From Syntrophorhabdaceae bacterium (GTDB lineage Bacteria; Desulfobacterota; Syntrophorhabdia; Syntrophorhabdales; Syntrophorhabdaceae): a DNA stretch of 64,000 nt. Location of the stretch: contig OY762209.1 in assembly GCA_963665295.1 (NCBI GenBank), positions 5,065,536 to 5,129,535 of the forward strand, written 5' to 3'. Each line of letters starts with the position of its first letter. Position 1 is the stretch's first letter. Of this stretch, positions 28,335 to 45,835 are shown piece by piece. The notes under the pieces were generated by a model. That model saw only the letters and a program-made list of their open reading frames with translations, was not told the DNA's origin and made no database searches. A program made the translations under genes and the position numbers.

Positions 28335-28826
28335 CTATTTGTTCATCATCCTTTTGTGGCTGCTCATCTTCATGAACATCACGGACCTCATCTTCTTGAA
28401 CTGTTCCTCCGTCAGAATAGACCGCATCTGTTTCATGGCCCTCAGCATTTCCAGGTGTTGGGCTGTCCGCATATCTCCAAGTTTCTTGACCGCAGCGCTC
28501 GCCTTATCCAGGTCAAAGTCCTTCACATCCATGATTTCCATCAGATCGATCCGCGCGATCTTCTGATCGGCTTTGAACCTGGCTTGTTTCTTCATCATTT
28601 CCCTGTGCAAGGACTTCATCTTCGTGATCTGATCATCGGTAAGACCCATACCGACCGCATTCTCCACGCATATCCCCATCATAGAGCCCATCATATCCAT
28701 ATCGTGCATACCCGTCATTTGTCCATGTTCCCCCCTGCGGTCGTTCATGGACATGCCCGTCATCTGTGAGAAAGCGGGCGCTACCAGCAAAACCGTCATC
28801 AACAATGCAAATACCAGCTTCTTCAT
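28335..28826 (-). CDS. periplasmic Spy/CpxP/ZraP-family protein with a Met/His-rich N-terminal region
   Basis: Signal peptide MKKLVFALLMTVLLVAPAFS. Met-rich tract QMTGMSMNDRRGEHGQMTGMHDMDMMGSMMG. Two LTxxQ motifs (LTDDQITKM, LTEEQFKKM). Confidence 0.75.
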   Translation of the reverse strand: MKKLVFALLMTVLLVAPAFSQMTGMSMNDRRGEHGQMTGMHDMDMMGSMMGICVENAVGMGLTDDQITKMKSLHREMMKKQARFKADQKIARIDLMEIMDVKDFDLDKASAAVKKLGDMRTAQHLEMLRAMKQMRSILTEEQFKKMRSVMFMKMSSHKRMMNK

Positions 28827-29187
28827 AATTTCCTCCTGTTTATGTGAGAAATGGAAACGTCATTAATCCTTTTGATACCTTTGGTCCGACCCGCCGCGGG
28901 TCTTATCGCGCCCGACCGCCGGCTCCGCCCTGCAAGGCAGCGGTTCTTGCGTGCCTCCATTTCTGAACCGCGGGCATCTCCCTGAGAATCTGCACGCACG
29001 GGTTACCCCGCCGGCTATTCGGCCTTACCAGGAAGATAAGGATTGAGAAATCGGTTTGCAAGGACCGGAGGCAGACGACGTACAGGAATACACGGGCGAT
29101 CAAAGGGCGTTCCCGTGCTCCCCCCTTCGTTATTGTCTGCATACGAGATGGACCGTCACAAAGATGACAGCCCTTCCAACAAGTGAT

Positions 29188-29216
29188 TTCACTTTAAACC
29201 CGGTGCAGTGTATAAT
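29188..29216 (+). promoter_or_regulatory. sigma70-like promoter upstream of phosphoesterase B
   Basis: TTCACT - 17 nt - TATAAT (perfect -10, preceded by TG), ~77 nt upstream of the GTG start. Confidence 0.4.
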
Positions 29217-29233
29217 TTCATATTGTGAACCCG

Positions 29234-29249
29234 TGGCAGGTTCTTTGCA
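29234..29249 (+). promoter_or_regulatory. sigma54-type -24/-12 element upstream of phosphoesterase B
   Basis: TGGCAG-GTTCT-TTGCA fits TGGCAC-N5-TTGCW, 44 nt upstream of GTG 29293. No equivalent element was seen upstream of paralogue A. Confidence 0.4.
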
Positions 29250-29292
29250 GAAAATGGATTTCAGACATTACAGAGACAAGGGAGGAAAGTCT

Positions 29293-31713
29293 GTGATACA
29301 CAAAAATGTTACCGAAAACCGGAACAGCCTGCTTTCTCAAAAAAGCTGCATAATCCGAAACGTGACCGCACTGTCATTCCTGGTCTTCCTGTTTATTATG
29401 ACCCTGCCGTTCCACGGATACCCGGCAGGACCCACGTACCCCATCTCCACTGATGTCCAGACCACAAGGCAGAGGACAGTACGTCCCTCCCCTATACCCG
29501 AAGCGCCGGAGATCCCGATATGGCAGGTCGAGAATTATGCCGGATACGGGTACAGTAACTGGACATTCGGAGACCCTGTCGACTACGGCAGACTCTTGCC
29601 GGACGGCTCCGAACCTGATGTATCCAACCCGGTCGAAACGCTACTAAATTACTTTTCCATAAGCGATACTCACATCACCGACAAGGAATCGCCGGCCCAA
29701 TCGCTCTACTTCGGGGTGCAGGGAGGTTTTGGAAGCGCCAACCTGCCGATGTACTCACCCGTTATGCTGTCCACCACCCACGTTCTTGACGCGGTGGTCC
29801 AGACCATCAACGCCCTCAACACGGGGACGCACTTCGATTTCGGCATAGGGCTTGGCGATCCGGCGAACAGCAACCTGTACAACGGGCTCAGGTGGCATAT
29901 CGACATTCTCGACGGAAAGTGGATCACTCCGAGCTCGGGTGCGCACAAAGGAGCGAAGACTATCGACTACCAGAAACCCTACCAATCGGCGGGGCTCGAC
30001 AAGTCGATTTCATGGTACCAGGTCATCGGCAACCATGACCAGTATTGGTCCGGCGCCTTCTATCCCAACGATTACCTTCGAAGCACCCTCGTGGGAAACA
30101 CCGTTCTCAACATGGGCCTCGTGGGAGGGAACCCTTCCCTTGAGGCGCGCGGCATCTATATGGGCGTAATTGACGGGACTACCCCCTACGGGACCGTCGA
30201 GGACGACGGCGCAGCCTCGACCATGGAGCCGCCGAAGGTAGCCGCCGACAGTCGCCGCCGCGCACTCACGACCCCCACGTCGTCGTCCCTGAACTGGATG
30301 AAGGAGTTTTTCAACACCACTTCGAAACCGAAGGGCCACGGGTTCACCCAGGCCAATCTCGATCAGGACTTTGTCTCCTACACCTTCGAGCCCAAATCGA
30401 GCGTGCCGGTAAAGGTCATAGTCCTCGACGACACGTGCAAGGAAAACCCGTACTACGGTTCGTATTCCCACGGCTGCCTGGATCAGACACGGTATGACTG
30501 GCTTGTCAACGAACTTGACCAGGGTCAGGCCGAGGGCAAGCTCATGATCGTCGCCGCCCATGTCCCGGTAGGACCTCAGACAAATGTCCCCGACGCCCCG
30601 ATTCCGCCGAACCCGCAGGCCCCCGCCGTTCCCAACGATACGGTCATCCCCATGTTCTTCTCCACGTGCAACACTAACCCGACTTCCATAGGGGTCACTT
30701 GTGCCGCCGGTGTCGATATATCAAACAATGACCCGGTCTTCCCTTATACCGTCGTCACCGACTGGACGCTCCTTCAGACTCTTCATAACTACTCGAACCT
30801 CATCCTCTGGATGGCGGGGCACCGTCACATGAATACCGTCACCCCGCAACCCGCACCCGTAGACAAGGGCCCGGAGTTCGGCTTCTGGGAGGTGGAAACC
30901 CCATCGACCAGGGACTTCCCTCAGGGGTTTCGCACATTTCAGATCGTTCGTAACGACAACAATACGGTTTCCATATTCGTCACCAACGTGGACCCCGCGG
31001 TCCAGAACGGTTCTCCCGCGGACAAGTCCCGTGGGTATGCGATCGGCGCATACAGGATAGCAACCGGCACGCCCGGTCTCACTGATACCACCTCTCATGT
31101 ATATAACGCGGAGCTTATCAAGCCCCTTGCCGATCCTTATACCATTACGGTCAACGTGACCGGGCCCGGTACGGTAGACATGGGCCCCTACCAGGCTGCC
31201 ACATGCTCCGTGAGCAGCCCTTGTTCGGCGGATTATCTCCCGGGCACGCAGGTGGTCCTTGCCCCCATTCCCTCCACCGGGGCTGCCTTTACCGGGTGGT
31301 CGGTCTGTCCGGGGACATCAACGTGCAACATCATCATGACCGGTGATACCACGGTGACGGCAAGATTCATCCAGTCTCCGACCGCGACCGCCGCCCCGAC
31401 CTACAAAAACTTCCCTGTTACAAAGACCGGGAAGAAGGCCGTCTCCACCTTTACGGTCAGCAATACCCGGGCGAAAGGCATCGTTGATCTTGCAATCGGT
31501 ACCATTTCGATAGGCGGGCTAAACGCAGACCAGTTCCAGGTCGTGGAAGGCAAGGACCGTTGTTCCGGACAGATTGTCAAGCCGGGCAAGAACTGCACCT
31601 TTCAGGTTTCTTTCAATCCCACTTTGACGAATACCCGGGTGGCAACGGTTACGATACCCTCGAACGACTCCGCTTCACCTACGACCATACCGATCACCGG
31701 AGCGGGAAAATAG
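29293..31713 (+). CDS. secreted metallophosphoesterase paralogue B (same architecture as 25376-27811)
   Basis: AGGGAGGA SD ~7 nt before GTG 29293, and the N-terminus aligns with paralogue A (..LVFLFIMTLPFHGYPAGPTYPIS). It has the same SDTHITD, GLGDP, GNHDQYW, AAHVP and GHRHMN motifs, and the same B-repeat plus choice-of-anchor-D-like tail. By eye it is roughly two-thirds identical to A. Confidence 0.85.
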   Translation: MIHKNVTENRNSLLSQKSCIIRNVTALSFLVFLFIMTLPFHGYPAGPTYPISTDVQTTRQRTVRPSPIPEAPEIPIWQVENYAGYGYSNWTFGDPVDYGRLLPDGSEPDVSNPVETLLNYFSISDTHITDKESPAQSLYFGVQGGFGSANLPMYSPVMLSTTHVLDAVVQTINALNTGTHFDFGIGLGDPANSNLYNGLRWHIDILDGKWITPSSGAHKGAKTIDYQKPYQSAGLDKSISWYQVIGNHDQYWSGAFYPNDYLRSTLVGNTVLNMGLVGGNPSLEARGIYMGVIDGTTPYGTVEDDGAASTMEPPKVAADSRRRALTTPTSSSLNWMKEFFNTTSKPKGHGFTQANLDQDFVSYTFEPKSSVPVKVIVLDDTCKENPYYGSYSHGCLDQTRYDWLVNELDQGQAEGKLMIVAAHVPVGPQTNVPDAPIPPNPQAPAVPNDTVIPMFFSTCNTNPTSIGVTCAAGVDISNNDPVFPYTVVTDWTLLQTLHNYSNLILWMAGHRHMNTVTPQPAPVDKGPEFGFWEVETPSTRDFPQGFRTFQIVRNDNNTVSIFVTNVDPAVQNGSPADKSRGYAIGAYRIATGTPGLTDTTSHVYNAELIKPLADPYTITVNVTGPGTVDMGPYQAATCSVSSPCSADYLPGTQVVLAPIPSTGAAFTGWSVCPGTSTCNIIMTGDTTVTARFIQSPTATAAPTYKNFPVTKTGKKAVSTFTVSNTRAKGIVDLAIGTISIGGLNADQFQVVEGKDRCSGQIVKPGKNCTFQVSFNPTLTNTRVATVTIPSNDSASPTTIPITGAGK

Positions 31714-31865: not shown

Positions 31866-33374
31866 TCAGGGCGCCCGGCAGAGCCATTTTCTCCTCTCTT
31901 CTTCGTATTTCTCCTCTGCAATCGCCAATCGGGAAGGGTCCACAAGCCACCGCCAGGGAGCATCCATATGCCACTGCCGGTGGACGTATTGCCCTATGCA
32001 CTTGTCGTCAACAAACACTTTCATGGCTCCCCCCGGTACTTTGCCGAATAGAACGAATCTGAGCCTCAATCTGCCTTGCCCGAAAAAACGCAACATAGAC
32101 TTGATGTGAAGATATCCGTCGAGCCTTCTCAAAACAATATTCCTGGTATTTCTCAATATTCTTGAGATGCGGGCATAGGCATAGACGCACATGCCCGCTA
32201 AGCCCCCGGCAACCGGGCGATGCCTCCCTTGCCCGTGCACGGCCGTGACACGGCCTTCCACCGCACTCATGGGGACCGGGAAGGGGTCGTTTTCAGAGTT
32301 GTTGTCGCCGCGGGTCAGGAGACCGTCGGCGTGTACGGCCATGATCCGGTGGACCACCCTGATGCCCTTTACAGGATCGTGAAAACAGGCGACGTCGCCG
32401 CGGCGGGGATTCTTACCGTTGTAGGGTTCAACATCCAGAAAATCGGGCGCTTTCAACGTGGGATACATGCTGTTTCCAGAGAGCGTCACACCCCAAGGCA
32501 TGACCGGAACCCTCACGGAACTGCCGCCGGCAGATGGGTGCGCCACAGGGTATCCGCTCAGAAGGGGCTCTTTTTTTAACGACTCTTCGACCAGCTTCCA
32601 GAATTCTCCGGTCAGACCCAGATGAAGGATGTACGCATGCAGCGCCGCCGTCAGTGCACAGACGATCGAGAATTGCCTCAAGCGGTTTTCCCGCACCTCG
32701 GGAAGGGATAATTGCCGGTCGAAAACACCGTTTACCTGTCCTACCGAGTCGATAAGCATGGCTGCAGCCTGGGTCGGATTGATTTCTTCTAAAGTATCTT
32801 CCGGGGAGCGACGGAGAAAGTAGAGAGCAGCGAGCGGTACGGCAGCGCCGGTATCCCAGGCGCCGCCCGGGCCGTCGTCATAAAAGCGGCTCCAAGTCGG
32901 CCAGGGATGTGCCAGATACTTTCCCTCCGGATCCCGTACGATAAGGACCGTATCGTCACAGAGCGAATGCCAGGGAAAAGGGAGCCTTAAAGATGCCGTG
33001 GTTTTTCCGGTACCTCCCGGCGCCGCAAAAAGAACCCCTTTCCCTTCGTACTCTGCGAGCGCGCCATGCACAAGTACGCCGCCGTGGGTTTGGACTTCAT
33101 GGGCAATGACCAGGCTAACCTTCATAGCCCTGGATACAAGGTCGAACCTATTTTGGGGTCGGGAGAAGCGGTAGACAATCATATCATCGTCTACGGAAAA
33201 GGCTTCCTCTTGCTCTTCCCGGGCGGTCATAACGCAAAGAGAACGACTCGCGACGCCGGTCTTGAGCATCATGGCGTTCGCCAGGAGTTCCACGACGGGC
33301 TCCATTTCCTTTGTTCCCGCGTGGATTTGTCTTCGGGAGCCGTCAGTCAGAGACAGCAGGTATGATTTCCCCAT
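31866..33374 (-). CDS. RiPP-cassette protein: N-terminal P-loop domain (HprK-like / ScmC-like) fused to an S26 signal-peptidase-like domain and a ~120-aa C-terminal tail
   Basis: HGALAEYEGKGVLFAAPGGTGKTTASLRL is a Walker-A motif in an HPr-kinase-C-like context. GNSMYPTL, RGDVACF, VVHRI and TRGDNN..D are archaeal/ER-type S26 motifs. It is the last gene of the cassette operon. Confidence 0.75.
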   Translation of the reverse strand: MGKSYLLSLTDGSRRQIHAGTKEMEPVVELLANAMMLKTGVASRSLCVMTAREEQEEAFSVDDDMIVYRFSRPQNRFDLVSRAMKVSLVIAHEVQTHGGVLVHGALAEYEGKGVLFAAPGGTGKTTASLRLPFPWHSLCDDTVLIVRDPEGKYLAHPWPTWSRFYDDGPGGAWDTGAAVPLAALYFLRRSPEDTLEEINPTQAAAMLIDSVGQVNGVFDRQLSLPEVRENRLRQFSIVCALTAALHAYILHLGLTGEFWKLVEESLKKEPLLSGYPVAHPSAGGSSVRVPVMPWGVTLSGNSMYPTLKAPDFLDVEPYNGKNPRRGDVACFHDPVKGIRVVHRIMAVHADGLLTRGDNNSENDPFPVPMSAVEGRVTAVHGQGRHRPVAGGLAGMCVYAYARISRILRNTRNIVLRRLDGYLHIKSMLRFFGQGRLRLRFVLFGKVPGGAMKVFVDDKCIGQYVHRQWHMDAPWRWLVDPSRLAIAEEKYEEERRKWLCRAP

Positions 33375-33415: not shown

Positions 33416-34609
33416 TCAACGGACCGTATCCGGCATGAGGCGTGTTGTCCCTTGCGTGCTCCGGCCTTTCCTGCGGCGACTTGCCGGGAAAAGCCCTTGC
33501 CTGTCGGCCTCCCGGCATCGCGTGCCCGCCCATACCATACCTCCCCCTTTCCGGTAGTTTGCGGCAACGCAGCCGGTGCGGCACACGCGCGAGAGGATGC
33601 AATCCCCGCATATTCCCGGATACCCGAGATAATCTTCAAGCTCCCGCCGGAGACTTTGCAGTTTCGGGTGATGGAACCATATCTCCCGCACGCTGTCGCC
33701 CAGACGTCCATAGACAAGGGAGGGGACCGTCTGCCCAATGCCGCACATAGCGATCTCGCCCGTGCCCAGGATACCCAGAATACCGATGACGCCGCAATCC
33801 CCCGTGCGGCCCCCGGTTTCCATGAGCGTCCTGAAAGACCGGACGGCCGGCGGCAAATTGAGGATGAAACCCTTGATGGACGTCTTTTCCTTCAGTTCGC
33901 CATACACATATTTCTCAAGGGCCCGCAGTTCCGTGATGCCGAGGGTTTCCCTGCGCGCCGTCATCTGCTTGCCCCGCCCGCTGTCGGTGACAGGATTGAA
34001 TTTTACCGAGGCCACGCCATGCTTTGCCGCCAGGGATGCAACGCCGTCTATTTGAGAAACGTTTCCTCTATGGAGGCTCATGATGACCTGCGTGTTGTCG
34101 TATCCCGCTTCTTTGAGGCAGTCAAGTCCGCTCAAGGCGGCGGCAAAAGCGCCTCGGGCGCCTCTGAAGGCGTCGTGCGCCTCCTCGTCGGGATCGTCGA
34201 GGCTCACGGAAATGGAGCCTACTTTTGTGTTGTTCTTGAGCCAGTGCGCCAGCTCCCGCGTCATCAGGGTGCCGTTGGTCTCCATGTTCATGGTGAGGCC
34301 CATGTCGGAGAGCCCCGCCGCAATCTCCTTGAAGCGTGGATGAAGAAGGGGCTCGCCGCCCGTGAGTTTTGCCCTTGTCAATCCCAGGTTTTTGGCCTCT
34401 TTCACCGCGGCAAAAAGCGGTTCCGGGTCGATGCATTCCCGCGGGTCGGGCCTGCCGTCGATAAAACGCGGCGTGACCCAGCAGTGGCGGCACATGAGGT
34501 TGCAGCCGGAGGTGAGATAGAGGTAAAAGGAGCGGAGCGGCGGCACACCTTGCGGCAGCTCCGGGAAAGATGACGATTCAACGGGAATTTCCGGATCGCA
34601 AAGGGACAT
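33416..34609 (-). CDS. radical SAM/SPASM peptide maturase (PqqE-like), second of two
   Basis: ATG 34609 has an AAGAGGA SD (the track start at 34651 is TTG). LYLTSGCNLMCRHCW is the Cx3Cx2C cluster. The C-terminal Cys-rich SPASM region reads CGVIGILG..GEIAMCG...CGDCILSRVCRTGC. Confidence 0.85.
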   Translation of the reverse strand: MSLCDPEIPVESSSFPELPQGVPPLRSFYLYLTSGCNLMCRHCWVTPRFIDGRPDPRECIDPEPLFAAVKEAKNLGLTRAKLTGGEPLLHPRFKEIAAGLSDMGLTMNMETNGTLMTRELAHWLKNNTKVGSISVSLDDPDEEAHDAFRGARGAFAAALSGLDCLKEAGYDNTQVIMSLHRGNVSQIDGVASLAAKHGVASVKFNPVTDSGRGKQMTARRETLGITELRALEKYVYGELKEKTSIKGFILNLPPAVRSFRTLMETGGRTGDCGVIGILGILGTGEIAMCGIGQTVPSLVYGRLGDSVREIWFHHPKLQSLRRELEDYLGYPGICGDCILSRVCRTGCVAANYRKGGGMVWAGTRCREADRQGLFPASRRRKGRSTQGTTRLMPDTVR

Positions 34610-35723
34610 TCTTATCCTCTTTATATTTCTTGTAGCAGTTCCTTGGGTCAACGGCGTTTAACGTGCCGCATTGGGCGAAAACGACCGCCGGGCAGCCTCC
34701 TGTGCAAAATCCGGCATAGCTGCAGTCCCCGCATCCGGCGACCGTGGTGATCGGGGTTTCATAACGTGTGCGCAGGATATTGATTTCCCGTCCTGAAAGC
34801 CACGCCTCGCGAAGCGGCGTAGAGCCGATCTTCCCCATGACCATAGTAGGCAGCATAGTGCAAGGGACGATAGCGCCGTCGTGGCGAATCGCCATCTTAT
34901 TGAAAACTCCGCCACAGGCGGCAAGTTTTCCCCTGCCCGGCAGGCCGGTCTTGCCTTCGGCGAGGGCTCCTTCGATCTGAGCGACGTTTCTGGTGAAGGC
35001 CAGGGGTCCCGCTGCGGCTTTAATGCGTCCCGGGTAGCGCAGGGCAAGCTCTTCCATGGTTTTGACGGCCACGTCCCACTCTTCGTTGGAGAGGATCACG
35101 TCCTGACCGGAGCAGCGGGCGGAGCCGAAGGGGTTGGCGCCGTCGGTGCTGAAGGATTTCAGCCCTGCGTCTTCGAGGAGCAGGACGGCGACGTTTTCCA
35201 GATCACGCACATTGTAGCGATTGACCGTGACCCGGACGGTAACAGGAAAATCATGTTTCTTGAGCAGGCGCAACCCGCGCAAAGCCCGCTCGAAGCTCGC
35301 AGGCGAACGAGTTGAGTCGTGGATCTCAGGCGTGGCTCCGTCGATGGATACCTGAATGGAATCGAGGCGCAGCCGGCGCTTGCCTTCACGGAAGGCGTCG
35401 ATGACCTTGTCGTCGATGAGGGTGCCGTTGGAGAGAACGCTGTAGCGCATGCGGTTTTCGATCACGCTGTCAACCAGTGTGAAAAAATCAGGACGAGTAA
35501 AGACCTCGCCGCCGCTTAAGGTGAGGCGCTCGACGCCTATTGCACCCGCCTCAACAAAAAACTCACGCCACCGATCCGTAGGAAGATCGTCAAGGGCGGT
35601 CATTTCATCGGCGTAGAAGCAATAGCGGCACCGGAGGTTGCATTTACCCGTCAGACTGACCTGAAGGTTCGCGGGTGCGCCGCGTACACCGAAAGGATTG
35701 TTTTCACGTCTCCGAGGTTTCAT
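34578..35723 (-). CDS. radical SAM/SPASM peptide maturase (PqqE-like), first of two
   Basis: VSLTGKCNLRCRYCFY cluster motif. SPASM region CGGVFNKMAIRHDGAIVPC...CGDCSYAGFCTGGCPA. It overlaps the upstream PqqD-like gene by 20 nt. Confidence 0.87.
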   Translation of the reverse strand: MKPRRRENNPFGVRGAPANLQVSLTGKCNLRCRYCFYADEMTALDDLPTDRWREFFVEAGAIGVERLTLSGGEVFTRPDFFTLVDSVIENRMRYSVLSNGTLIDDKVIDAFREGKRRLRLDSIQVSIDGATPEIHDSTRSPASFERALRGLRLLKKHDFPVTVRVTVNRYNVRDLENVAVLLLEDAGLKSFSTDGANPFGSARCSGQDVILSNEEWDVAVKTMEELALRYPGRIKAAAGPLAFTRNVAQIEGALAEGKTGLPGRGKLAACGGVFNKMAIRHDGAIVPCTMLPTMVMGKIGSTPLREAWLSGREINILRTRYETPITTVAGCGDCSYAGFCTGGCPAVVFAQCGTLNAVDPRNCYKKYKEDKNVPLRSGNSR

Positions 35724-35979
35724 CGTGGACGATTACAAAATCGGGCAGCAGGGATTCAATAAACCTCTCGACATCCTCCTGCACATGCGTGGCGCCTTCG
35801 GTGTTTGCCGCCAGATATGCCGAGATTTCCGCGGAGGTCCGGGGCCGGGCGATTCTGTCCCATATGAGCCGTCCCGTTTCGTTGATCAGCACCACTTCGT
35901 CCGTATCGGGGTTGAAAAGCAGCGCCCCTTCGTCCTCGTCCCTTAGAGACACTACAGGATTTACTGCGTAACGCTTCAT
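35704..35979 (-). CDS. PqqD-family protein (RiPP recognition element), copy 2
   Basis: 91 aa. ...EGALLFNPDTDEVVLINETGRLIWDRI..PRTSAEISAYLA......V..DVERFIESLL is the typical PqqD pattern. ATGA overlap with copy 1. Confidence 0.75.
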   Translation of the reverse strand: MKRYAVNPVVSLRDEDEGALLFNPDTDEVVLINETGRLIWDRIARPRTSAEISAYLAANTEGATHVQEDVERFIESLLPDFVIVHDETSET

Positions 35980-36272
35980 AGATTGACCTCATACCCGATT
36001 AATCCCGTATCCAGGAGAATATCCAGAATGGCCCGCACATCGTCCTCCAGCGTCGGTGGCGCATCAATAAAACATTTTGCCGTTTCCTCGATGATGTCCC
36101 CCACGGTGCGGACGCCGTTCACGAGCCGCCAGATCAAAAGTCCGGTTGAGTTGAGCGCAAGACCGGTCGGAACGTCCAGATTGACGATAACCGCCCAGCC
36201 GCCTGCGTCTTCCTGCAGGGCATACGCCGGATTGCCGACAGGCAGCGAATCTAAACCGATTTCCCCGATCAT
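35976..36272 (-). CDS. PqqD-family protein (RiPP recognition element), copy 1
   Basis: 98 aa. ...AVIVNLDVPTGLALNSTGLLIWRLVNGVRTVGDIIEETAKCF.....LEDDVRAILDILLDTGLI is PqqD-like. It is the first gene of the operon, next to the AT-rich divergent promoter region. Confidence 0.7.
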   Translation of the reverse strand: MIGEIGLDSLPVGNPAYALQEDAGGWAVIVNLDVPTGLALNSTGLLIWRLVNGVRTVGDIIEETAKCFIDAPPTLEDDVRAILDILLDTGLIGYEVNL

Positions 36273-36428
36273 TCAGATTTCCATTCAATGTCGTTAAGTT
36301 CTATTTATAGCGTATAAATCACTAATTGGCAATCACAATAATATATTGGCGGAATAATTTGTTGAAGTTGCAATCGTAAATGTGGTATTCAAATGATAAA
36401 TCACAGATCAAAAGGAGGTTCGGTCAAC

Positions 36429-36629
36429 ATGAAGAAAACATCCTCCCCCACATCGACACCGGTCATGGACAGCCCGGAGACTAAAGCGGCCAAGCGGTAC
36501 GTCCCACCCACTGCGCTTCGGTTCGAATACTCTGTGGCGCACGCAGCCTGCAGCTATGGATCCGACGCCCCCACCGGGTGCAGTACCGGCGCCGTCGCCT
36601 TCGGCTGCACCAATGGGACCAACGAATAA
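36429..36629 (+). CDS. candidate RiPP precursor peptide (66 aa)
   Basis: AGGAGG lies ~10 nt before ATG 36429. Sequence: MKKTSSPTSTPVMDSPETKAAKRYVPPTALRFEYSVAHAACSYGSDAPTGCSTGAVAFGCTNGTNE. The C-terminal 27 aa contain three C-[ST]-x-G motifs 9-10 residues apart, preceded by an A-H-A (AxA) site. It is divergent from the maturase operon. Confidence 0.55.
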   Translation: MKKTSSPTSTPVMDSPETKAAKRYVPPTALRFEYSVAHAACSYGSDAPTGCSTGAVAFGCTNGTNE

Positions 36630-36759
36630 GCAGATAAAGAATGGGGTTTCTTAAGATACCCTGACTGCCCCTCTCGCTGCCCGTCCTTACAGCCCGAGGG
36701 ACTCTCCTACTATCAGGACTATCAACTCCGTGCGGAAGGGCTCTTTGGCTGGGACCGTG

Positions 36760-36895
36760 TACGGTCAACAATACCCGGACGAAAGGCATGGTTGATCTTG
36801 TAATCGGCACCATTTCCATAGGCGGGTTGAACGCGGACCGGTTCCAGGTCGTGGAAGTGTCCGCCCGTACCCTGTCTCTTCCCGGCCTTTCCTCA
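36760..36895 (+). pseudogene. remnant of a third phosphoesterase paralogue (choice-of-anchor-D-like segment plus downstream sequence)
   Basis: 36760-36858 is ~89% identical to 31452-31549 of paralogue B, and the frame is preserved (TVNNTRTKGMVDLVIGTISIGGLNADRFQVVE). 36857-36895 resembles 31792-31817, downstream of B. There is no start and no upstream body. Confidence 0.65.
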
Positions 36896-38025: not shown

Positions 38026-39825
38026 ATGAAGAACATTTTGCGGATTCTCGGAGTATTGCTCATTGGCGCGGTCTGTCTTTTTGCAACGGATTGCCTTGCC
38101 CAAGGTAAACCTCCATTGAAGGTTGCCCTCATATTCGACATAGGCGGGAGAGGGGACGGCGGGTTCAATGATTCCGCATACCATGGTCTTCAAAAAGCGG
38201 CCCGCGACTTCAACATAAAGACGGACCTTGTCGAACCCCGGAGAAGTCTGGACAGGGAACAGGCCTTAAACGCCCTTGCGGTTTCCGATGCGGACATGGT
38301 TATTGGAGTGGGGTTCGCCTTTACTGAAAACATGAATGCCCTTGCCGCCCGGTATCCCCAAAAGAAGTTCGTATGTGTCGATTACGGCGTCAAGCACGAC
38401 CACAAAGGGGCCGTCATACCCCCTGCGGCAAACCTGGCAGGCCTGCTTTTCAAGGAAGAGGAAGGCTCTTACCTGGTAGGAGTCATGGCAGCCTTAAGGA
38501 GCGGGACAGGCAAGATCGGATTTATGGGCGGCATGGATTGCCCCATCATTCGTAAATTCGAAGCCGGCTACATGGCGGGCGCCAAGGCGGCGAGGCCCGA
38601 TATCATCGTGCTGTCACGGTTTGCGGGGATTACGGGAAAGTCGTTCAACGACCCTGAAAAAGGAGAAGCCATGGCAACCGCCATGTACCGGGATGGGGCG
38701 GACGTTATCTTTCACGCCGCCGGACCTACTGGGGAGGGTCTCTTCAAGGCCGCAAAGAAGTTCAACAGGTTCGCCATAGGCGTTGACAGCGACCAGTACA
38801 TGCAGGCGCCCGGTCTAGTCCTCACGAGCATGACCAAGAATGTGGACGTGGCGGTTTTTGAAAGCATCAAGTCCCTGGCGGACGGAAACTTCTCCGGGGG
38901 CCTCAAGGTTTTCGGCCTGAAAGAGAACGGCGTGGGATTTGTCTATGACGATCACAACAAGGGCCTCATCCCCCCGGACGCGTACAAAAAGGTCCTCGAG
39001 GCGCGGGAAAGGATTATAAAAGGAGAAACCGTCGTCCCCACCTCTACCCAAAACAAGCGGTTATTTGCAAGATCGGACCTGCGCGAACTCCTTTCCCGGT
39101 TGCAGAGCGAGACCCTTGCCGTACTGGCCGGACTGGAGGGGGATCTCACACGAAGCGCCCGGGCCCTCTCGGGAAAGACGCTCAAGGGCAACCACGCCCG
39201 GAAGGTGCTCAAGAAACTCTACGCCTCGAACCCTTATATCATCGATTGTGAAACAGTGAGCAACAAAGGGATCATGCTCGTGGTGGAGCCGTCCCGGTTC
39301 AGTTCATCCGAAGGAGCCGATATAAGCAAGCAGGCACACATGGTGACCCTTTTCCGGACAAAGAAACCCGTGTTAAGCGGGGCCTTCCGTTCCGTTGAGG
39401 GCCCGGAGGCGGTGGCGTTCCATTATCCTGTCTTCTCTTCCCCGGGCAAGACATTTTCAGGGTCCGTGTCAACCCTTTTCGCTCCCGAATACCTTTTGTC
39501 CCGCATAATAGGCCCCGTCGCATCTCTCCAGCCCGTGGATATATCGCTCATGCAGACGGACGGCAGGATGATCTACGACATAGACACAAAACAGATAGGC
39601 TTGAATGCCTTCACCGACCCCCTGTATCAGCCGTTCCCCGAGGTCCTTGCCCTCGTCAAGAAGGTAGCCGCGGAAAAGGAAGGCACCGCCACCTACCGTT
39701 TCTACCGTCAGGGATCACAGACACCCGTAGTAAAAGAAGCCCACTGGAAGACCATAGCCTTCCACGGTGCCGAGTGGAGGCTCATAGTAGCCTGTTCAAA
39801 GGATGACATGGAACCGGACAAATAG
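38026..39825 (+). CDS. BMP-family (Med/PnrA-like) periplasmic binding lipoprotein fused to a C-terminal Cache-like sensor domain
   Basis: Signal/lipobox-like LLIGAVCLFATDC. BMP pattern KVALIFDIGGRGDGGFNDSAYHGL...VGFAF....., FIGGMD.P.I..F..G. The C-terminal ~250 aa (YASNPYIIDCETVSNKGIMLV...ISLMQTDGRMIYD....GLN) look like a PDC/Cache fold. No output domain is present. Confidence 0.75.
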   Translation: MKNILRILGVLLIGAVCLFATDCLAQGKPPLKVALIFDIGGRGDGGFNDSAYHGLQKAARDFNIKTDLVEPRRSLDREQALNALAVSDADMVIGVGFAFTENMNALAARYPQKKFVCVDYGVKHDHKGAVIPPAANLAGLLFKEEEGSYLVGVMAALRSGTGKIGFMGGMDCPIIRKFEAGYMAGAKAARPDIIVLSRFAGITGKSFNDPEKGEAMATAMYRDGADVIFHAAGPTGEGLFKAAKKFNRFAIGVDSDQYMQAPGLVLTSMTKNVDVAVFESIKSLADGNFSGGLKVFGLKENGVGFVYDDHNKGLIPPDAYKKVLEARERIIKGETVVPTSTQNKRLFARSDLRELLSRLQSETLAVLAGLEGDLTRSARALSGKTLKGNHARKVLKKLYASNPYIIDCETVSNKGIMLVVEPSRFSSSEGADISKQAHMVTLFRTKKPVLSGAFRSVEGPEAVAFHYPVFSSPGKTFSGSVSTLFAPEYLLSRIIGPVASLQPVDISLMQTDGRMIYDIDTKQIGLNAFTDPLYQPFPEVLALVKKVAAEKEGTATYRFYRQGSQTPVVKEAHWKTIAFHGAEWRLIVACSKDDMEPDK

Positions 39826-40330: not shown

Positions 40331-42379
40331 TCATTCGAGGGTGCCCTTCCCCGTCCCGGGTTTCAGGAAGACCGCAGTAACCGCACGGGCTTTATCCATG
40401 GTAACTATACAAGGCTCCGTGCCCGGACAATTCAGGGAAGCAGGTTTCCATCCCGTGAAAAGGGAATCATTGTTTGCGGTTGCCGTGAGGGTTACCGCGT
40501 CATGGAAGGGATAGTATGCGGAGCAGGTGGAGCCGCAGGTGATACCGGAAGGCACGCTTGTCACGACGCCATTGCCCTTTCCCATCTTGCGCTTTGAAAC
40601 GGTCAGCTTCTGAGTTCCCGCAAACGTGGCGACCACTGTTTTTGCCTTATCCATGGTGACCGAACAGGCTCCGGTCCCCGAACAGGCTCCGGTCCATCCC
40701 GTGAAGGTGGAGTTCGCTTCCGGGGAAGCAGAAAGGACCACCGCGTCATGGAAGGGATAGTATGCGGAGCAGGTGGAGCCGCAGGTGATACCGGAAGGCA
40801 CGCTTGTCACGACGCCATTACCACCCTTTCCCGTCTTGCGCTTTGAAACGGTCAGCTTCTGAGGTCCCGCAAACGTGGCGACCACTGTCTTTGCCTTATC
40901 CATGGTGACCGAACAGGCTCCGGTCCCCGAACAGGCTCCGGTCCATCCCGTGAAGGTGGAGTTCGCTTCCGGGGAAGCAGAAAGGACCACAAGAGTGTTC
41001 GGATAGTAGCGAGTTCTGCAATGGGTGCCGCAATCGATCATGCCGTCCGTGCTCGTAATGGCTCCATTCCCTGAATTCATCCTTCTCCTGATTGCTGCAA
41101 GCTCAACCTTCTTCGTCTCTGCCGGCTCAAACACAGCGGTCACATTCATATCGCTGCTCATGACTACGGTGCATGTGGGTGATGCCCCGATACACGCTCC
41201 TGTCCAGTAAGCAAAGACAGACCCGGAAGCGGCTGCTGCAGTGAGCGTTACAGTGGTGTCGGGGATAAAACGGGCGGCACAGGTTACGCCACAATCAATT
41301 TCGGCAGAAGAAGAACCAATGCTGCCGGAGCCGTTGCCGCATCTCGTGACAGCGAGGATGGGGATGGCCGGCGACAGGAAGGCATAGGGCCCGCCGGATG
41401 TAGTATAGAAATACCCCACCACATCTCCTGCGTTATTTATGGCGGTGGCATAGGCCGTTGTTCCTCCCGGCGGAGTTCCGAGGTCCATCATGGCCCCATT
41501 GCTGTAAAGAAAAGCGCGGATATCGCTATCGTCATTATAAGAAATTCCCACCACCTGCCCTGCGTCGTTGATGCCATAGGCATAACTATTGGTTCCTCCC
41601 GGCAGGGTTCCGAGGTCCGTCATGGTCCCATCACTGTAAAGAAAAGCACGGACCAGATGATCCGCAGTATTGGCATAACCCACCACCTGTCCTGCGTTAT
41701 TGATACCAAAGGCGTGACTATAGGTTCCTCCCGGCAGGGTTCCGAGGTCCGTCATGGTCCCATCACTGTAAAGAAAAGCATGGTTGCTGCCGGAGGCAGC
41801 CCCTACTACCTGTCCGGCGTCGTTGATGCCATAGGCATCAACAGAGTACCCGAGTTTGATCAGCCGACGACTATTAACATTAAAAAGAAAAGACCAGGAG
41901 GTAACAATGCTCATTGGTCCTATTTCGTTGTAATACCCCACCGCGTCTCCGGCATTATTGACGCCACGGGCAATGGTGTATGATAGCCTTTTTGGCGGAT
42001 ATCCGAAATGGATCACCGTTCCATTGGTGTAATAAAAGTTGCCCAAAGAGGACAACCCTACCACATCCCCCGCGTCGTTAATACCGGTTCCGTGGCTATA
42101 CTCCTCTCCTATCAGGACTCCGATATCCGTCATGGTCCCATCGCTAAAAAGAAAGGCGTGATACTGACCGGATGAAGTAACGGCTGTTCCCACTACCTGT
42201 CCGGCGTTGTTGATGTCCTTGGCCTGGCTCCAGGCTCCTCCCAAGGTTCCGAGGTTGATCATGTTTTCGGCTGCAAATGATCCGGGGGGATAGGACAAGA
42301 AAACCAGAAGGGTGTACAAAAATAGAGTTCCCGGAATACCCACCACAGATTTCGTTCGTCGCTGAGAACTTTTCTCCAT
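40331..42379 (-). CDS. secreted HAF-family repeat protein with four C-terminal B-repeat modules
   Basis: ATG 42379 has a GAAGGGGGG SD, followed by a signal segment (LFLYTLLVFLSYPPGSFA). There are ~8 repeats of GINDAGQVVG....HAFLYSDGTMTDLGTLPGG..S.A (HAF extracellular repeat, TIGR02913 as recalled), then Cys-containing B-repeats. Confidence 0.85.
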   Translation of the reverse strand: MEKSSQRRTKSVVGIPGTLFLYTLLVFLSYPPGSFAAENMINLGTLGGAWSQAKDINNAGQVVGTAVTSSGQYHAFLFSDGTMTDIGVLIGEEYSHGTGINDAGDVVGLSSLGNFYYTNGTVIHFGYPPKRLSYTIARGVNNAGDAVGYYNEIGPMSIVTSWSFLFNVNSRRLIKLGYSVDAYGINDAGQVVGAASGSNHAFLYSDGTMTDLGTLPGGTYSHAFGINNAGQVVGYANTADHLVRAFLYSDGTMTDLGTLPGGTNSYAYGINDAGQVVGISYNDDSDIRAFLYSNGAMMDLGTPPGGTTAYATAINNAGDVVGYFYTTSGGPYAFLSPAIPILAVTRCGNGSGSIGSSSAEIDCGVTCAARFIPDTTVTLTAAAASGSVFAYWTGACIGASPTCTVVMSSDMNVTAVFEPAETKKVELAAIRRRMNSGNGAITSTDGMIDCGTHCRTRYYPNTLVVLSASPEANSTFTGWTGACSGTGACSVTMDKAKTVVATFAGPQKLTVSKRKTGKGGNGVVTSVPSGITCGSTCSAYYPFHDAVVLSASPEANSTFTGWTGACSGTGACSVTMDKAKTVVATFAGTQKLTVSKRKMGKGNGVVTSVPSGITCGSTCSAYYPFHDAVTLTATANNDSLFTGWKPASLNCPGTEPCIVTMDKARAVTAVFLKPGTGKGTLE
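40494..40988 (-). repeat. near-identical tandem duplication (246 + 249 bp) inside the HAF-repeat gene
   Basis: 40494-40739 and 40740-40988 differ only by a 3-nt indel and a handful of substitutions (~98% identity). Each unit encodes one B-repeat module (SASPEANSTFTGWTGACSGTGACSVTMDKAKTVVATFAG.QKLTVSKRK.GKG). Confidence 0.9.
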
Positions 42380-42542
42380 GACGATCCCCCCTTCCGCCCA
42401 CACACCGGTGAACCGGTTATGGGCCCCTTCATTCAACCTGTGCTACTCTATGCAGGTATTGTCAATACCATAAATCCGCCTCTGCCGACCAAAAATCAAA
42501 ACTGCATAATTCAAAGATGACTGAAGAATTAAAAGGAGCAGT

Positions 42543-42568: not shown

Positions 42569-45500
42569 TTATTCTTCGTCGCCCCCACCTTCTTCCCTTG
42601 CAGCGGCCCCGTCGTTACCCGCAAGACCCACAGTGACTACGGGGGCATCGGGATCATTGGAAGGTATGCTGAGGGTCGCCGTTGCAGGAGAGGTTGAGAC
42701 AGGAGCGAACATCACCGATACGTGACACGTCTGGTTGGCGGAGAGGCTTTTCCCGAAGCACGTGTTTCTCGTAATATGGAATGAAATATCATCGCTCAGG
42801 GAGGCCGTACCCACGGTCAAAGCTTCCTTCCCTTCATTCTTGATCGTGAAGGAGGCAGTCTTGTGTGCCGGAGGCTTTACCATTCCGTAGTTCTTGTTTA
42901 AGGGACTCACGACAATGTCGGCTTCATCCTTGAACATCGCAGTCGCATTGATTGCGCCGTTCATAGTCACCCTGCAGGTATGTACCCCCGAACAATCCCC
43001 CGACCATCCCTTGAAGATCGAACCTTTGGCTGCTCTCGCGGTAAGGGTGACCTTTGTGGCCTCCCGGAAGTCGTATGCGCAGGTGTCCCCGCAATCGATC
43101 CCCTGAGGGGAGCTGGTTATGACGCCTGTGCCGGAACCTGCCTGGGAAACGGCCAAGGTGTAGATCGGAGCGAAAGTCACCACTACCGTATGTTCTTTGG
43201 TCACATTGGTAATCACATAGGGGTTCGCGATAGCCACCGACCTTCCGTTGTCGGTAATTTTCGTTATCCGGCAACCCGCGTCGGGAGTCATTGCAATAGA
43301 TGCGCTATCCCCCTGTCTCACCTCCAGAGTGGCAGGGCTCACCGATCCGTGGCCGCTCAGGACCCAGGCACCGACTGTGTACGCTTTTGCCTCAAAATTG
43401 GCGGTCACGGAGGTATACTCGGTCATAGTAAGGGAGCATGTGGTCTTTGTCCCCGAACAGCCTCCCGACCATCCCGTAAACGTCGCATCCCTGGCAGGTT
43501 TTGCGGTAAGAGTGACCTTCTTGCCGTCGGTAAACCCGTAGGTACAGGTATCCCCGCAATTGATCCCTCGGGGATTGCTCGTAACCGTACCCGTGCCGGA
43601 GCCGGTCTTCACGACCTCAAGGGTTGCGATGGTGGAAAAAGTGACGGTCACATTGTGATCAGCGGTAACGTTGGACAGCAGGTAAGGGTTGGCAACGGCC
43701 ACCGGCTGTCCGTTATCGATGATGCCGGCGATATTATAGCCGCTGTCGGGGGTGATGGTGATAGAGGCCGAGGCCCCATAGTTTACCTTCTGCGTCGCAG
43801 GGCTTACAGATCCATGGCTGCCGGAGACAACGGCGTTTACCGTGAAGGCATTGAGGGTGAATGTGGCCGTCACGGATTTGTTGGCCGTCATGGTAACGGT
43901 GCACACAGCGCCCGAGGATGAATCGCATCCGCTCCAGCTTGTGAAGGCGGAGCCTGTGCCGGGTATGGCGGTGATGTTTACCACGGAACCCGTACTATAG
44001 GCTCCCGTACAGGTGGAACCGTTGCAGGTAAGGCCCGTTGCACTGAACGTGCCCGTACCGCTGCCTGTCTTCGAGACGGTGAGTACGTTCAAATCGGTTT
44101 GGAAGGTTACCACCACGGTGTGATCGGAAGTGACGTTGCTTATTACGTAAGGATTAGGGATCGCGGCTTTTCCGGATGCCCTCATTTTCGCAGCCGCCAC
44201 ACGGCCCTTCACGGTGGAGCGTTGATTGGCGGAACCCGTGACCGGCTGACCGTTATCGGTAATGGCGGCGACATAATAGTTCGTCTCGGGGGTCATGGTA
44301 ATGGAAGCCGAGGCCCCATGGGAGACCTTCTGGGTTTCAGGAGAGACTGTCCCGTGCCCCTCCGGCGCGGAGGCGCCGACAGTATGAATGGCTGCCGCGA
44401 AGGTCGCGGTAACGGTGATGTCTCCGGTCATGGTTACCGTGCAGGTTCCTGTCCCCGAGCATCCCCCTCCCGACCATCCGGTGAAGGCGGAACCCGTATC
44501 AGGGACGGCTTGAAGCGTGACCTCAGTGTCTTTGACGAATGGCGCAGAGCAGGCATGGCCGAAAGGACCGCATGAGATGCCGGCGGGCGAAGAGCCGACC
44601 GCGCCTACACCGGCGCCCGCCCTTTCTACCGTGAGGATAGGGTTACCCAACGAATCCGACTGTGCGATACCAAAACTACCTACCCCCACAAAGGTATCGT
44701 TGCCGTAGATTATGCCTTTTAAAGGGGCAGACAAGCCGGCGGAATGATCAGTCCACGTAATGCCATCGGGAGATCCAAGGAGAACCGGGGTAGTCGAATC
44801 ACAACTCCCCACTGCCGCAAAGGTCCCGCCGCCATAGGCGATACCGTTCAGTCCACATTTTGTTCCCGATGATTGTTCAGCCCACGTGACGCCGTTCGAA
44901 GAGGTAAGGACAACTCCACCCGCCCCCACCGCCACGAAGGTGTTGTTGCCGTAGGCGACCCCATTAAGGCCGGTACCGCTTCCCACACTCCCTACGGACC
45001 ACTCGACGCCATCGGGCGACGTAGCAAATACCCCCGTATACGTACCCGAATTGACTCTCTGCCCCACTGCCACGAAGGTGTTGTTGCCGTAACTTATGGC
45101 CTTCAGAGAATCCGTTGTTCCCGATGATTGTTCAGTCCACGTAACGCCGTTCGGAGAGGTAAGGACAGCTCCACCCGCCCCTACCGCCACGAAGGTGTCA
45201 TAGCCGTAACAGATACCCCATAGATCATGCGTCGTCCCTGATGATTGCTTAGTCCATGTATTTCCGTCCGGAGAAAGGCAAACGTTGGCGGAGCCGCCTG
45301 CGACCGGGCTTCCCACGGCTGCGAAGGTATTATTGCCGTAAGCCACGCTCCTGAGCGAGGAAGTTACACCAAAAACCGGCGGTCCCGCGTTAAACACCTC
45401 CGCCCATGTGGTGCCCCCGGAAGAGCTGAAAATGGTCCAAACCGGCCAACTTCCCGCGCCTCCCACAGCTGCAAAGGTACCGTTGTCATAGGCAACGCCC

Positions 45501-45835
45501 GCAAATTGATAATACATGGAAACACTTACATATCTTGTGTGCCAGTTGTCAAGGGGGTTATACGCCGTACTGGAGGAGGTAACCGCCCGGCCTTCAGCGC
45601 CGGGACAGGCAACTTTGTTACCCGCACTGCCATAGCACCCTGTCTGTCCCGTTCGCGCCGGAGCACCGACAGTTTCCGCGTAACCGGGCAAGACCCCACA
45701 GAACAGAATAATCAACGCGAGAACAAATGATCGTTTCGTGATACCCCCCTTCTTTTCAACGAAACGTGGTGAACGCTTCCGAACACTGATGGAATGCAGC
45801 CATTGCGTGATGTCCACCAGGCCGGCCGACGGCAT
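42569..45835 (-). CDS. large secreted protein: Asp-box (BNR-like) beta-propeller repeats, ~8 B-repeat modules, and a C-terminal choice-of-anchor-D-like domain
   Basis: Signal segment FVLALIILFCGVLPGYA. The start is ATG 45835 or 45892; there is no start codon nearer the signal. There are ~6 repeats of NTFVAVG.GG.VLTSPNGVTWTEQSSGTT..L.GI.YG containing S-x-[DN]-G-x-[TE]-W. Cys-containing and Cys-less ~85-aa repeats then alternate. The C-terminus is FTIKNEGKEALTVGTASLSDD..F.....C.G.SL...Q.C.V.V.F.P. Confidence 0.8.
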   Translation of the reverse strand: MPSAGLVDITQWLHSISVRKRSPRFVEKKGGITKRSFVLALIILFCGVLPGYAETVGAPARTGQTGCYGSAGNKVACPGAEGRAVTSSSTAYNPLDNWHTRYVSVSMYYQFAGVAYDNGTFAAVGGAGSWPVWTIFSSSGGTTWAEVFNAGPPVFGVTSSLRSVAYGNNTFAAVGSPVAGGSANVCLSPDGNTWTKQSSGTTHDLWGICYGYDTFVAVGAGGAVLTSPNGVTWTEQSSGTTDSLKAISYGNNTFVAVGQRVNSGTYTGVFATSPDGVEWSVGSVGSGTGLNGVAYGNNTFVAVGAGGVVLTSSNGVTWAEQSSGTKCGLNGIAYGGGTFAAVGSCDSTTPVLLGSPDGITWTDHSAGLSAPLKGIIYGNDTFVGVGSFGIAQSDSLGNPILTVERAGAGVGAVGSSPAGISCGPFGHACSAPFVKDTEVTLQAVPDTGSAFTGWSGGGCSGTGTCTVTMTGDITVTATFAAAIHTVGASAPEGHGTVSPETQKVSHGASASITMTPETNYYVAAITDNGQPVTGSANQRSTVKGRVAAAKMRASGKAAIPNPYVISNVTSDHTVVVTFQTDLNVLTVSKTGSGTGTFSATGLTCNGSTCTGAYSTGSVVNITAIPGTGSAFTSWSGCDSSSGAVCTVTMTANKSVTATFTLNAFTVNAVVSGSHGSVSPATQKVNYGASASITITPDSGYNIAGIIDNGQPVAVANPYLLSNVTADHNVTVTFSTIATLEVVKTGSGTGTVTSNPRGINCGDTCTYGFTDGKKVTLTAKPARDATFTGWSGGCSGTKTTCSLTMTEYTSVTANFEAKAYTVGAWVLSGHGSVSPATLEVRQGDSASIAMTPDAGCRITKITDNGRSVAIANPYVITNVTKEHTVVVTFAPIYTLAVSQAGSGTGVITSSPQGIDCGDTCAYDFREATKVTLTARAAKGSIFKGWSGDCSGVHTCRVTMNGAINATAMFKDEADIVVSPLNKNYGMVKPPAHKTASFTIKNEGKEALTVGTASLSDDISFHITRNTCFGKSLSANQTCHVSVMFAPVSTSPATATLSIPSNDPDAPVVTVGLAGNDGAAAREEGGGDEE

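Follow-up and report, generated by a model that had tools for sequence, protein, structure and literature searches.

Which peptide does the SynChlorMet cassette act on? This cassette, named after the models ScmC (TIGR04249), ScmD (TIGR04248), ScmE (TIGR04250) and ScmF (TIGR04251), is a named but orphan radical S-adenosylmethionine (SAM) system, that is, a set of enzymes without known substrate. The TIGRFAM text describes its precursor as not identified. A cassette of this type is encoded in a stretch of 64,000 nucleotides of a Syntrophorhabdaceae bacterium (assembly GCA_963665295.1, contig OY762209.1, positions 5,065,536 to 5,129,535), the whole of which is called the window in the following. 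Next to the cassette lies an open reading frame (ORF) of 66 codons at positions 36429-36629. A preliminary description of the DNA had proposed that it encodes a peptide consisting of a leader and a Cys-containing core. Our comparison with related loci makes it quite probable that this ORF is the genuine precursor gene of the adjacent SynChlorMet-type cassette. Judged by motif and context, the encoded peptide appears to belong to a large unnamed family which seems to be the missing substrate of the cassette.

The reading frame and its peptide family

The precursor gene and its upstream region comprise the following features:

36429..36629, plus strand: predicted precursor peptide gene, here called ScmA-like; 66 codons plus stop (translation, coding signal, motif matches, family alignment)
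36412..36418, plus strand: Shine-Dalgarno sequence AAGGAGG, 10 nt 5' of the ATG, read directly from the sequence
36273..36428, no strand assigned: divergent intergenic region between the gene for RRE1 (see below) and the peptide gene; 156 bp, GC content 0.321

The 66-amino-acid sequence quoted in the preliminary description proved to be the exact translation of this segment. Its three Cys residues, Cys41, Cys51 and Cys60, lie in the contexts A-C-S-Y-G, G-C-S-T-G and G-C-T-N-G, with gaps of 10 and 9 residues, as had been claimed with the pattern G/A-C-S/T-x-G and a spacing of 9-10. An in-frame ATG at 36393 is not preceded by a Shine-Dalgarno sequence of its own. This upstream start was rejected and the 66-amino-acid start preferred because the longer ORF would enclose the AAGGAGG sequence. 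The GC content rises from 0.321 in the intergenic region to 0.617 in the ORF. Within the ORF the GC content at third codon positions is highest in the proposed frame (0.74), which is also the only one of the six frames with a codon-usage log-likelihood above zero under a model made from the neighbouring genes. On the opposite strand an overlapping ORF of 112 amino acids (36481-36819) was rejected as a real gene on account of its worse codon scores and the absence of a family match. The intergenic region presumably holds promoters for both directions. An Rfam search of the window yielded no families, and no other precursor-like ORF was found in the 64 kb.

Relatives of the peptide were sought in 160 loci around ScmE homologues, taken from genomes and metagenomes, many of them short contigs. 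These loci belong to anaerobic Deltaproteobacteria-like bacteria, Chloroflexota, WOR-3 and methanogenic archaea. A tblastn search of these loci with the peptide gave repeated weak matches in which a Y-x-P-P-x-A-x-R segment and a Cys/Gly-rich tail formed the constant alignment. To derive the leader motif Y.[PA]P.[AVI][VMIL][RK], only columns from the other genomes were counted, with the window left out. It matched 68 times in the six-frame translation of the 160 loci (2.65 M amino acids), and 66 of these matches were short ORFs with Cys-containing tails; of the other two, one was a truncated copy and one apparently a chance match. In the six frames of the window (108,648 amino acids) the motif occurs once, as YVPPTALR of the 66-codon ORF. 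The leader-independent core pattern C..G.{4,8}C..G.{4,8}C..G also has a single match in the six frames of the window, and this match too falls in the 66-codon ORF. That two rare patterns, independent of each other, meet in a single ORF next to the cassette and in the correct order argues against a chance ORF.

When the related loci were scanned with the core pattern, variant leaders (YVKPxxLDLG, YEKPxxRSLG and YEPPRARDLS) were found in most of the remaining cassettes. A relaxed leader definition finally raised the number of distinct peptides to 114, spread over 105 of the 160 loci. The earlier claim that the ORF encodes a leader and core precursor of the adjacent ScmE/ScmF cassette is thus supported by at least 114 distinct peptides that combine the same leader and Cys-Gly units in Scm cassettes. 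These peptides co-occur with ScmE and ScmF in nearly every locus, and their genes often lie directly between those of ScmF and ScmC.

The MAFFT alignment of the window peptide with 30 family members revealed eight invariant residues, Y24, P27, C41, G44, C51, G54, C60 and G63. For the peptide the following parts are predicted:

36498..36521, plus strand: leader recognition motif Y24-V-P-P-T-A-L-R31, matching the motif derived from the family only; predicted RRE/PqqD binding site
36537..36545, plus strand: A37-H38-A39, predicted -3/-1 site for an S26-type leader peptidase with cleavage before A40; aligned with the family G-x-G-x-C
36546..36626, plus strand: predicted core, residues 40-66, with three C-x-x-G units (C41, C51 and C60)

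In the leader, the conserved element is Y24-x-x-P27-x-A-L-R31. The segment PP.AL.FEY, which the preliminary description had singled out, is therefore confirmed in its first part only, since the FEY that follows the element is not conserved in the family. In the core the window peptide keeps to the habits of its relatives. Family cores contain 3-6 Cys residues, with three, as in the window, in 31 of the 114 peptides. The distance between successive Cys residues is 9-12 in 345 of 405 intervals (10 and 9 in the window), Gly follows Cys at +3 or +4 (+3 in all three units of the window), and the tail after the last Cys comprises 6-10 residues (six in the window). Overall, the window peptide has a core typical of the family and an atypical leader-proximal part.

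The cassettes closest to that of the window by ScmE identity (72%), L082 and L083, possess a three-Cys peptide with the same CSYGS unit upstream of RRE1. Its gene is co-directional with the cassette, unlike the inverted gene of the window. Precursor genes on the opposite strand were found in L001, L007, L022, L029, L041 and L065.

A profile search of 5.8 billion proteins retrieved family members which are all unnamed or annotated as 'hypothetical protein' and carry no Pfam domain. When 1.84 billion representatives were searched exhaustively with HMMER, 794 family clusters emerged at E<=0.001, nearly all of 50-100 amino acids and all unnamed. Two of the peptides were found by the peptide profile alone, without use of ScmE, and their genomic context was PqqD-PqqD-radical SAM/SPASM-radical SAM-peptide-ScmC/S26. 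No model of NCBIfam release 20 matches the window peptide or seven family peptides, and Pfam holds no model for the window peptide.

The number of precursor genes varies among the loci. Whereas the window contains one, two or three copies are present in several other loci, and a Methanothrix locus (L009:10276-13219; L088 is identical) encodes five tandem paralogues between ScmF and ScmC. The five have near-identical leaders and differing cores.

The adjacent cassette

The peptide ORF begins 156 bp from the start of the RRE1 gene, on the opposite strand, and diverges from a contiguous, overlapping minus-strand operon of five genes which extends from 36272 to 31866. RRE denotes the recognition element of RiPPs (peptides that are made on the ribosome and modified after translation). 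The operon encodes the following proteins and domains:

35976..36272, minus strand: RRE1, PqqD-type peptide chaperone, ScmD-like, 98 amino acids (PF05402 50.8 bits; TIGR04248 47 bits, cutoff 100)
35704..35979, minus strand: RRE2, second PqqD-type chaperone, 91 amino acids (PF05402 42.9 bits; TIGR04248 34 bits; NF033530 27 bits)
34578..35723, minus strand: ScmE-like radical SAM/SPASM protein, 381 amino acids (TIGR04250 365.4 bits, cutoff 400; PF04055, PF13186)
33416..34651, minus strand: ScmF-like radical SAM protein, 411 amino acids (TIGR04251 298.9 bits, cutoff 400, best match; PF04055)
32520..33374, minus strand: ScmC domain, residues 1-285 of the ScmC-S26 fusion, HprK-like P-loop kinase fold (TIGR04249 148.7-150.9 bits, cutoff 125)
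32175..32519, minus strand: S26 (SipW/Sec11-type) serine peptidase domain, fusion residues 286-400, predicted leader peptidase (TIGR02228, PF10502, SEC11 alignment)
31866..32174, minus strand: C-terminal extension, fusion residues 401-502, no Pfam match

The same gene set in the same order characterizes the SynChlorMet cassette, and the best NCBIfam match of each cassette protein is the corresponding SynChlorMet model. The order PqqD, two radical SAM/SPASM proteins, ScmC recurs across the 160 related loci, in which we counted ScmF 150 times, PqqD 135 times, S26 85 times and ScmC 71 times, these counts being limited mainly by contig ends. Because only ScmC clears its curated cutoff, the cassette of the window is regarded as a divergent branch of SynChlorMet. 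Both PqqD-type proteins do pass the Pfam PqqD model. Literature searches on the SynChlorMet cassette, the Scm proteins, TIGR04248-51 and radical SAM enzymes combined with PqqD and HPr kinase retrieved no relevant paper, subscription journals being outside their scope.

The gene list of the preliminary description was incomplete, as it had overlooked the second PqqD gene. The RRE2 gene starts right at the stop codon of RRE1, and its end overlaps with the beginning of the ScmE gene. Among the 128 loci in which the upstream sequence is long enough, at least 60 keep this pair of paralogues.

The two radical SAM enzymes of the earlier gene list were recovered as ScmE-like and ScmF-like proteins. 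For the ScmE-like protein TIGR04250 is far ahead of the next family (122 bits), and homologues with 66-75% identity carry the name ScmE at JGI. For both ScmE and ScmF the nearest solved structure is the sactipeptide thioether synthase SkfB, followed by PqqE; these matches are weak. ScmE furthermore aligns with CteB over its full length. The SkfB, PqqE and CteB matches are consistent with thioether chemistry and are not diagnostic for it, and both ScmE and ScmF resemble AhbD/NirJ-type enzymes, whose substrates are not peptides, at a similar score level. As a side observation, the public gene call for ScmE (P0002, 341 amino acids) starts about 40 codons later than its homologues of 375-380 amino acids suggest, so that the source record probably gives a wrong N-terminus for ScmE.

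The ScmC-S26 fusion protein comprises 502 amino acids (33374-31866, minus strand) in three parts. Its ScmC part scored 148.7 bits with TIGR04249 when the whole fusion was searched and 150.9 bits when the N-terminal part was searched alone. In a search of the PDB with a profile of 22 ScmC sequences the three top matches were HPr kinase/phosphorylase (E=0.004-0.01). A search with the single ScmC-S26 sequence found HprK only at E ~0.5; E=0.004 was attained only with the profile of 22 sequences. The alignment of ScmC and HprK covers the signature HG...G.GV...GxGKS/T...DD, of which H103, G123, K124, T126, D140 and D141 are invariant in ScmC. Thus, ScmC is a P-loop enzyme of the HprK-like kind whose active-site signature is intact, a kinship that the preliminary description had missed.

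The S26-like domain which that description had recognized in the cassette is the SipW/Sec11-type domain of this fusion. It scored 48.8 bits with TIGR02228, just under the cutoff of 51.85, and 23.4 bits with PF10502 (cutoff 22.9), and it aligns to SEC11C. The catalytic Ser (S-M-x-P), His (V-H-R) and Asp (G-D-N) are present. S302, H342, D357 and D363 are each at least 90% conserved in 72 cassette S26 domains. No membrane anchor was found before the S26 domain of the fusion. The C-terminal extension of about 100 amino acids is restricted to about 10 loci, among them the closest relatives L006, L007 and L082.

Among loci L001-L160, 47 contain NTP_transf_5 (a nucleoside triphosphate (NTP) transferase) and 55 an MsbA-like ATP-binding cassette (ABC) exporter. 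In L161, a further locus with the gene context found through the peptide profile, the cassette continues with an NTP_transf_5 gene and an ABC exporter gene (9140-12115), accessory genes which are also those of the linear polyphosphorylated peptide (LPP) clusters discussed below. Wzz/bacterial tyrosine kinase-like and glycosyltransferase genes of polysaccharide-type loci lie beside the cassettes in L161:12634-14177 and L163:1639-2778. Such neighbours echo the capsular-polysaccharide neighbourhood reported for LPP clusters. L161 also carries a third, weakly scoring radical SAM gene upstream of the cassette on the opposite strand (1492-2652, minus strand).

Comparison with known systems and a proposed pathway

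The closest parallel to the leader-handling part of the cassette is provided by the LPPs (Popov et al., Nat Commun 2026, PMC13381572). Their precursors have the leader YxxPxVLxHQxIxFET, and a discrete RRE binds the [Y/W]xxP motif. Polyphosphorylation of core residue Ser3 is due to an HprK-like kinase, and a SipW-like peptidase cuts off the leader, for which it requires the RRE. According to the authors, peptidases of this kind, similar to type I signal peptidase (SpI), were previously undescribed in RiPP pathways. Radical SAM enzymes are never mentioned in that paper (PMC13381572).

Counterparts of all four are encoded in the window: a YxxPx[V/L/A] leader, of the same type as the [Y/W]xxPx[L/V/I/F/A] motif to which lasso and LPP RREs bind (PMC13381572, PMC10368454), a PqqD-type RRE that is a separate protein, an HprK-like kinase, and an S26 peptidase of the archaeal/SipW type. 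The distance from the leader Tyr to the proposed cut, Tyr+15, is the same as for the cleavage of LppA. Many Scm loci, unlike the window, also carry the NTP_transf_5 and MsbA-like exporter genes. LPP systems, reported from Bacillota, have no radical SAM enzyme and a single RRE, and their cores are not Cys repeats, whereas in the window two radical SAM/SPASM enzymes, two RREs, a kinase fused to the peptidase and a core of Cys-Gly repeats are found. LppS cuts after F-E-T and not after a small-x-small pair. The definition of LPPs as linear products, with phosphorylation as the primary modification and no other core-modifying enzymes, does not fit the window, where two radical SAM/SPASM enzymes form an integral part of the cassette. 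Judged from the encoded proteins, the Scm module is best read as LPP-type leader handling combined with two radical SAM/SPASM enzymes and a second RRE.

Sactipeptide and ranthipeptide systems (SkfB/AlbA, CteB/SCIFF, PapB/freyrasin) resemble the locus in having a radical SAM/SPASM maturase beside a short multi-Cys precursor with a Gly/Ala/Ser/Thr-rich core. The repeated Cys units of the window peptide recall the repeated CxxxD units of freyrasin. In contrast to these systems, the RREs of the window are discrete and duplicated instead of fused, two radical SAM enzymes are always present in the Scm system, and a kinase and S26 peptidase module is not known in either class. The radical SAM proteins of the window reach only 50-97 bits with the maturase families, whose cutoffs are 340-850, and the C-x(2,3)-G unit does not figure among the sactipeptide or ranthipeptide motifs described.

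Two further systems share single features with the locus. Lasso peptides have a leader recognition element of the YxxPxL type at about -17 to -12 (PMC10368454), and RRE2 matches the lasso PqqD model NF033530 with 27 bits (cutoff 70); the window contains neither a lasso cyclase nor a B2 cysteine protease. The cytoplasmic maturation protease of nickel superoxide dismutase (TIGR02754) also has an S26-type domain, which it uses independently of the Sec pathway to remove a short propeptide from the N-terminus. The domain of the window, with 31.7 bits against a cutoff of 63, is closer to the archaeal/Sec11 type, with a Ser/His/Asp arrangement.

From these comparisons the following pathway is proposed. 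The leader segment Y24-V-P-P-T-A-L-R31 would be bound as a beta-strand by one or both PqqD-type RREs; we infer this from the invariance of the Tyr and Pro residues and from the lasso and LPP precedents. The RRE-bound peptide would then be handed to the radical SAM/SPASM enzymes ScmE and ScmF, which would modify the three C-x-x-G units. The likeliest products would be sactionine- or ranthionine-type thioethers between Cys sulfur and a carbon of a nearby residue. We put this thioether-type step forward tentatively. That the two enzymes perform two chemically distinct steps on the peptide, as had been suggested before, is likewise an assumption of the scheme.

The HprK-like ScmC might phosphorylate a core Ser near the junction, by analogy with LppK, a step which we regard as possible rather than probable. 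Two residues come into question. S42 would be core residue 3 if the peptide were cut at AHA/A, where A39 is Tyr+15. S45 follows the Gly of the first unit, and Ser occupies that place in 48 of the 114 family peptides. Finally, the fused SipW/Sec11-type S26 domain would cut the leader at or near A37-H38-A39/A40 in the cytoplasm, acting on a substrate presented by the RRE and not on a Sec signal peptide.

The AHA/A junction had already been proposed in the preliminary description. It aligns with the family G-x-G-x-C, and a small-x-small pair separated by one residue from the first Cys occurs in 45 of the 114 family peptides, where 17.7 would be expected from shuffled spacers. This position, which is the most enriched in the family, has the same offset in the window, and the Ser, His and Asp of the S26 domain are intact. 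For leader removal by a SipW-like peptidase that depends on an RRE, the LPP system provides an experimental precedent (PMC13381572). With only about 40% of the members obeying it and the GEF/EC and GTF/SC junction subfamilies breaking it, small-x-small at the junction is a tendency of the family and not a law. A39/A40 could well be the exact bond that is cut, but we hold this assignment with slightly less than even confidence.

Taken as a whole, Scm may represent an undescribed RiPP class in many anaerobic bacteria and methanogenic archaea. An LPP-type module, in which a kinase would gate a SipW-like peptidase, would be joined by two radical SAM/SPASM enzymes, each paired with an RRE paralogue of its own, and the C-x-x-G units would be converted to multi-ring thioether-type or otherwise cross-linked structures. 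The 66-amino-acid peptide and about 800 clusters would be the missing precursors. This comprehensive proposal is plausible, although it falls somewhat short of being probable. The substrate family makes the orphan cassette directly testable, and the cassette of the window, with six genes and a three-Cys core, is compact enough for a convenient reconstitution model. If the proposal is correct, new radical SAM/SPASM chemistries would operate on a simple repeating C-x-x-G scaffold, and the S26 domain would be a second, phylogenetically distant signal-peptidase-like RiPP leader peptidase, fused to its presumed kinase partner. The locus would also offer a natural example of two enzymes that share one leader and are served by a pair of RRE paralogues, and the family would be among the few RiPP families common to bacteria and methanogenic archaea.

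Alternative explanations and neighbouring genes

A number of observations speak against the assignment of the ORF as a functional precursor of the cassette. In the peptide, the segment after the leader motif, FEYSVAHAA, is without the family pattern L-[GSD]-D-x3-G-x-G. The offset from the Tyr to the first Cys is 17, a value found in none of the 114 family peptides, 89 of which have 18-20. The limited occurrence of small-x-small at the junction, described above, belongs here as well. A leader hidden Markov model (HMM) built without the window scores the ORF at -2.8 bits after the HMMER composition correction; uncorrected, the score of 9.1 bits ranks first of 1,657 window segments, yet with E=0.09. 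A score of 37 bits with the family profile is circular, as the window peptide was included in that profile. Because the HMM statistics alone are not significant, family membership rests on motif specificity, architecture and context. A word-seeded search of 5.8 billion proteins with the 66-amino-acid peptide found only the peptide itself and no orthologue of similar sequence. Conservation near ScmE homologues takes the form of a family defined by motif and architecture, present in 105 of the 160 loci, and not of similar sequences.

At the level of the locus, the gene runs opposite to the cassette, whereas co-directional placement is usual. The promoter scan of 36273-36428 gave no plus-strand promoter and one weak sigma-70-like site on the minus strand, no more than expected by chance, and neither the terminator scan nor the fold of the 3' flank of the ORF rose above chance. 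ScmD (47 and 34 of 100 bits), ScmE (365 of 400) and ScmF (299 of 400) remain below the curated NCBIfam cutoffs. No NTP transferase or MsbA-like exporter was found in the 64-kb window at E<=1e-5.

Some of these points would be accommodated by a decayed or orphaned precursor, i.e., a peptide that descends from the family and is no longer a competent substrate, while the cassette is silent or acts on a peptide encoded outside the window. The atypical leader-proximal segment and spacing, the inverted gene, the lack of an exporter and an NTP transferase in the window and the lack of a close orthologue agree with this explanation. Against it stand the strong Shine-Dalgarno sequence and the intact frame, together with all of the RRE-contact-type residues (Y, P, A/L, R) and the three C..G units, all of which are retained. 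The five enzyme genes are undamaged and have kept their catalytic motifs, the window offers no other precursor-like ORF, and six other loci have precursors on the opposite strand. Decay of the precursor is accordingly improbable.

In a second alternative the peptide would be a substrate of the kinase and peptidase module only, giving an LPP-like linear phosphopeptide, and the radical SAM enzymes would act on another molecule, e.g., a cofactor or another protein. Kinase, SpI-type peptidase and RRE indeed suffice in LPP biosynthesis (PMC13381572), and the similar scores of ScmE and ScmF against AhbD/NirJ-type enzymes point in the same direction. The explanation fails to account for the peptides that accompany ScmE and ScmF in nearly every locus, often encoded between ScmF and ScmC, and for the presence of two RREs for two radical SAM enzymes. 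Moreover, the invariant, regular Cys-x-x-Gly units, which are absent from LPP cores, would suit a repetitive cross-linking enzyme. We therefore consider a purely LPP-like fate of the peptide quite improbable.

A chance intergenic ORF would be in line with the shortness of the frame, the HMM scores without significance, the lack of a detected promoter or terminator and the overlapping antisense ORF of 112 amino acids. It is very hard to reconcile with the coincidence of the two rare patterns, the strong Shine-Dalgarno sequence, the GC step and a codon bias that is positive in this frame only, while the antisense ORF is without a family match. That the ORF encodes an ordinary small Cys-rich protein for Sec secretion, with the A-H-A before the Cys-rich part as the site of the housekeeping signal peptidase, is next to inconceivable: residues 1-39 contain no hydrophobic h-region, so that the A-x-A does not belong to a Sec signal peptide, the N-terminus is polar with many Ser, Thr and Pro residues, the highest 11-residue hydropathy (1.17) is located in the core, and the leader of the family is of the RRE-type YxxP kind.

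The remaining neighbours of the cassette, among them a thioesterase, a Usp protein, secreted repeat proteins and a sensor kinase, are unrelated to it. Two paralogous large secreted proteins with a weak metallophosphoesterase signal are encoded at 25376-27811 and 29056-31713 (both plus strand); they also contain a divergent InlB B-repeat and Ig-like C-terminal domains. Similar repeat-rich sequences are present in the large proteins encoded at 40331-42436 and 42569-45892 (minus strand), of which only the former has a Pfam-confirmed B-repeat. Between the two plus-strand genes lies a gene for a small Met-rich protein (28335-28826, minus strand; MTGMSM..., MHDMDMMGSMMG) with an LTXXQ (CpxP/Spy-like) domain, which may be a periplasmic metal or stress protein. 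In the protein encoded at 38026-39825 (plus strand), a Bmp/PnrA-type ABC substrate-binding domain is fused, unusually, to a histidine-kinase/chemotaxis-type sensor domain.

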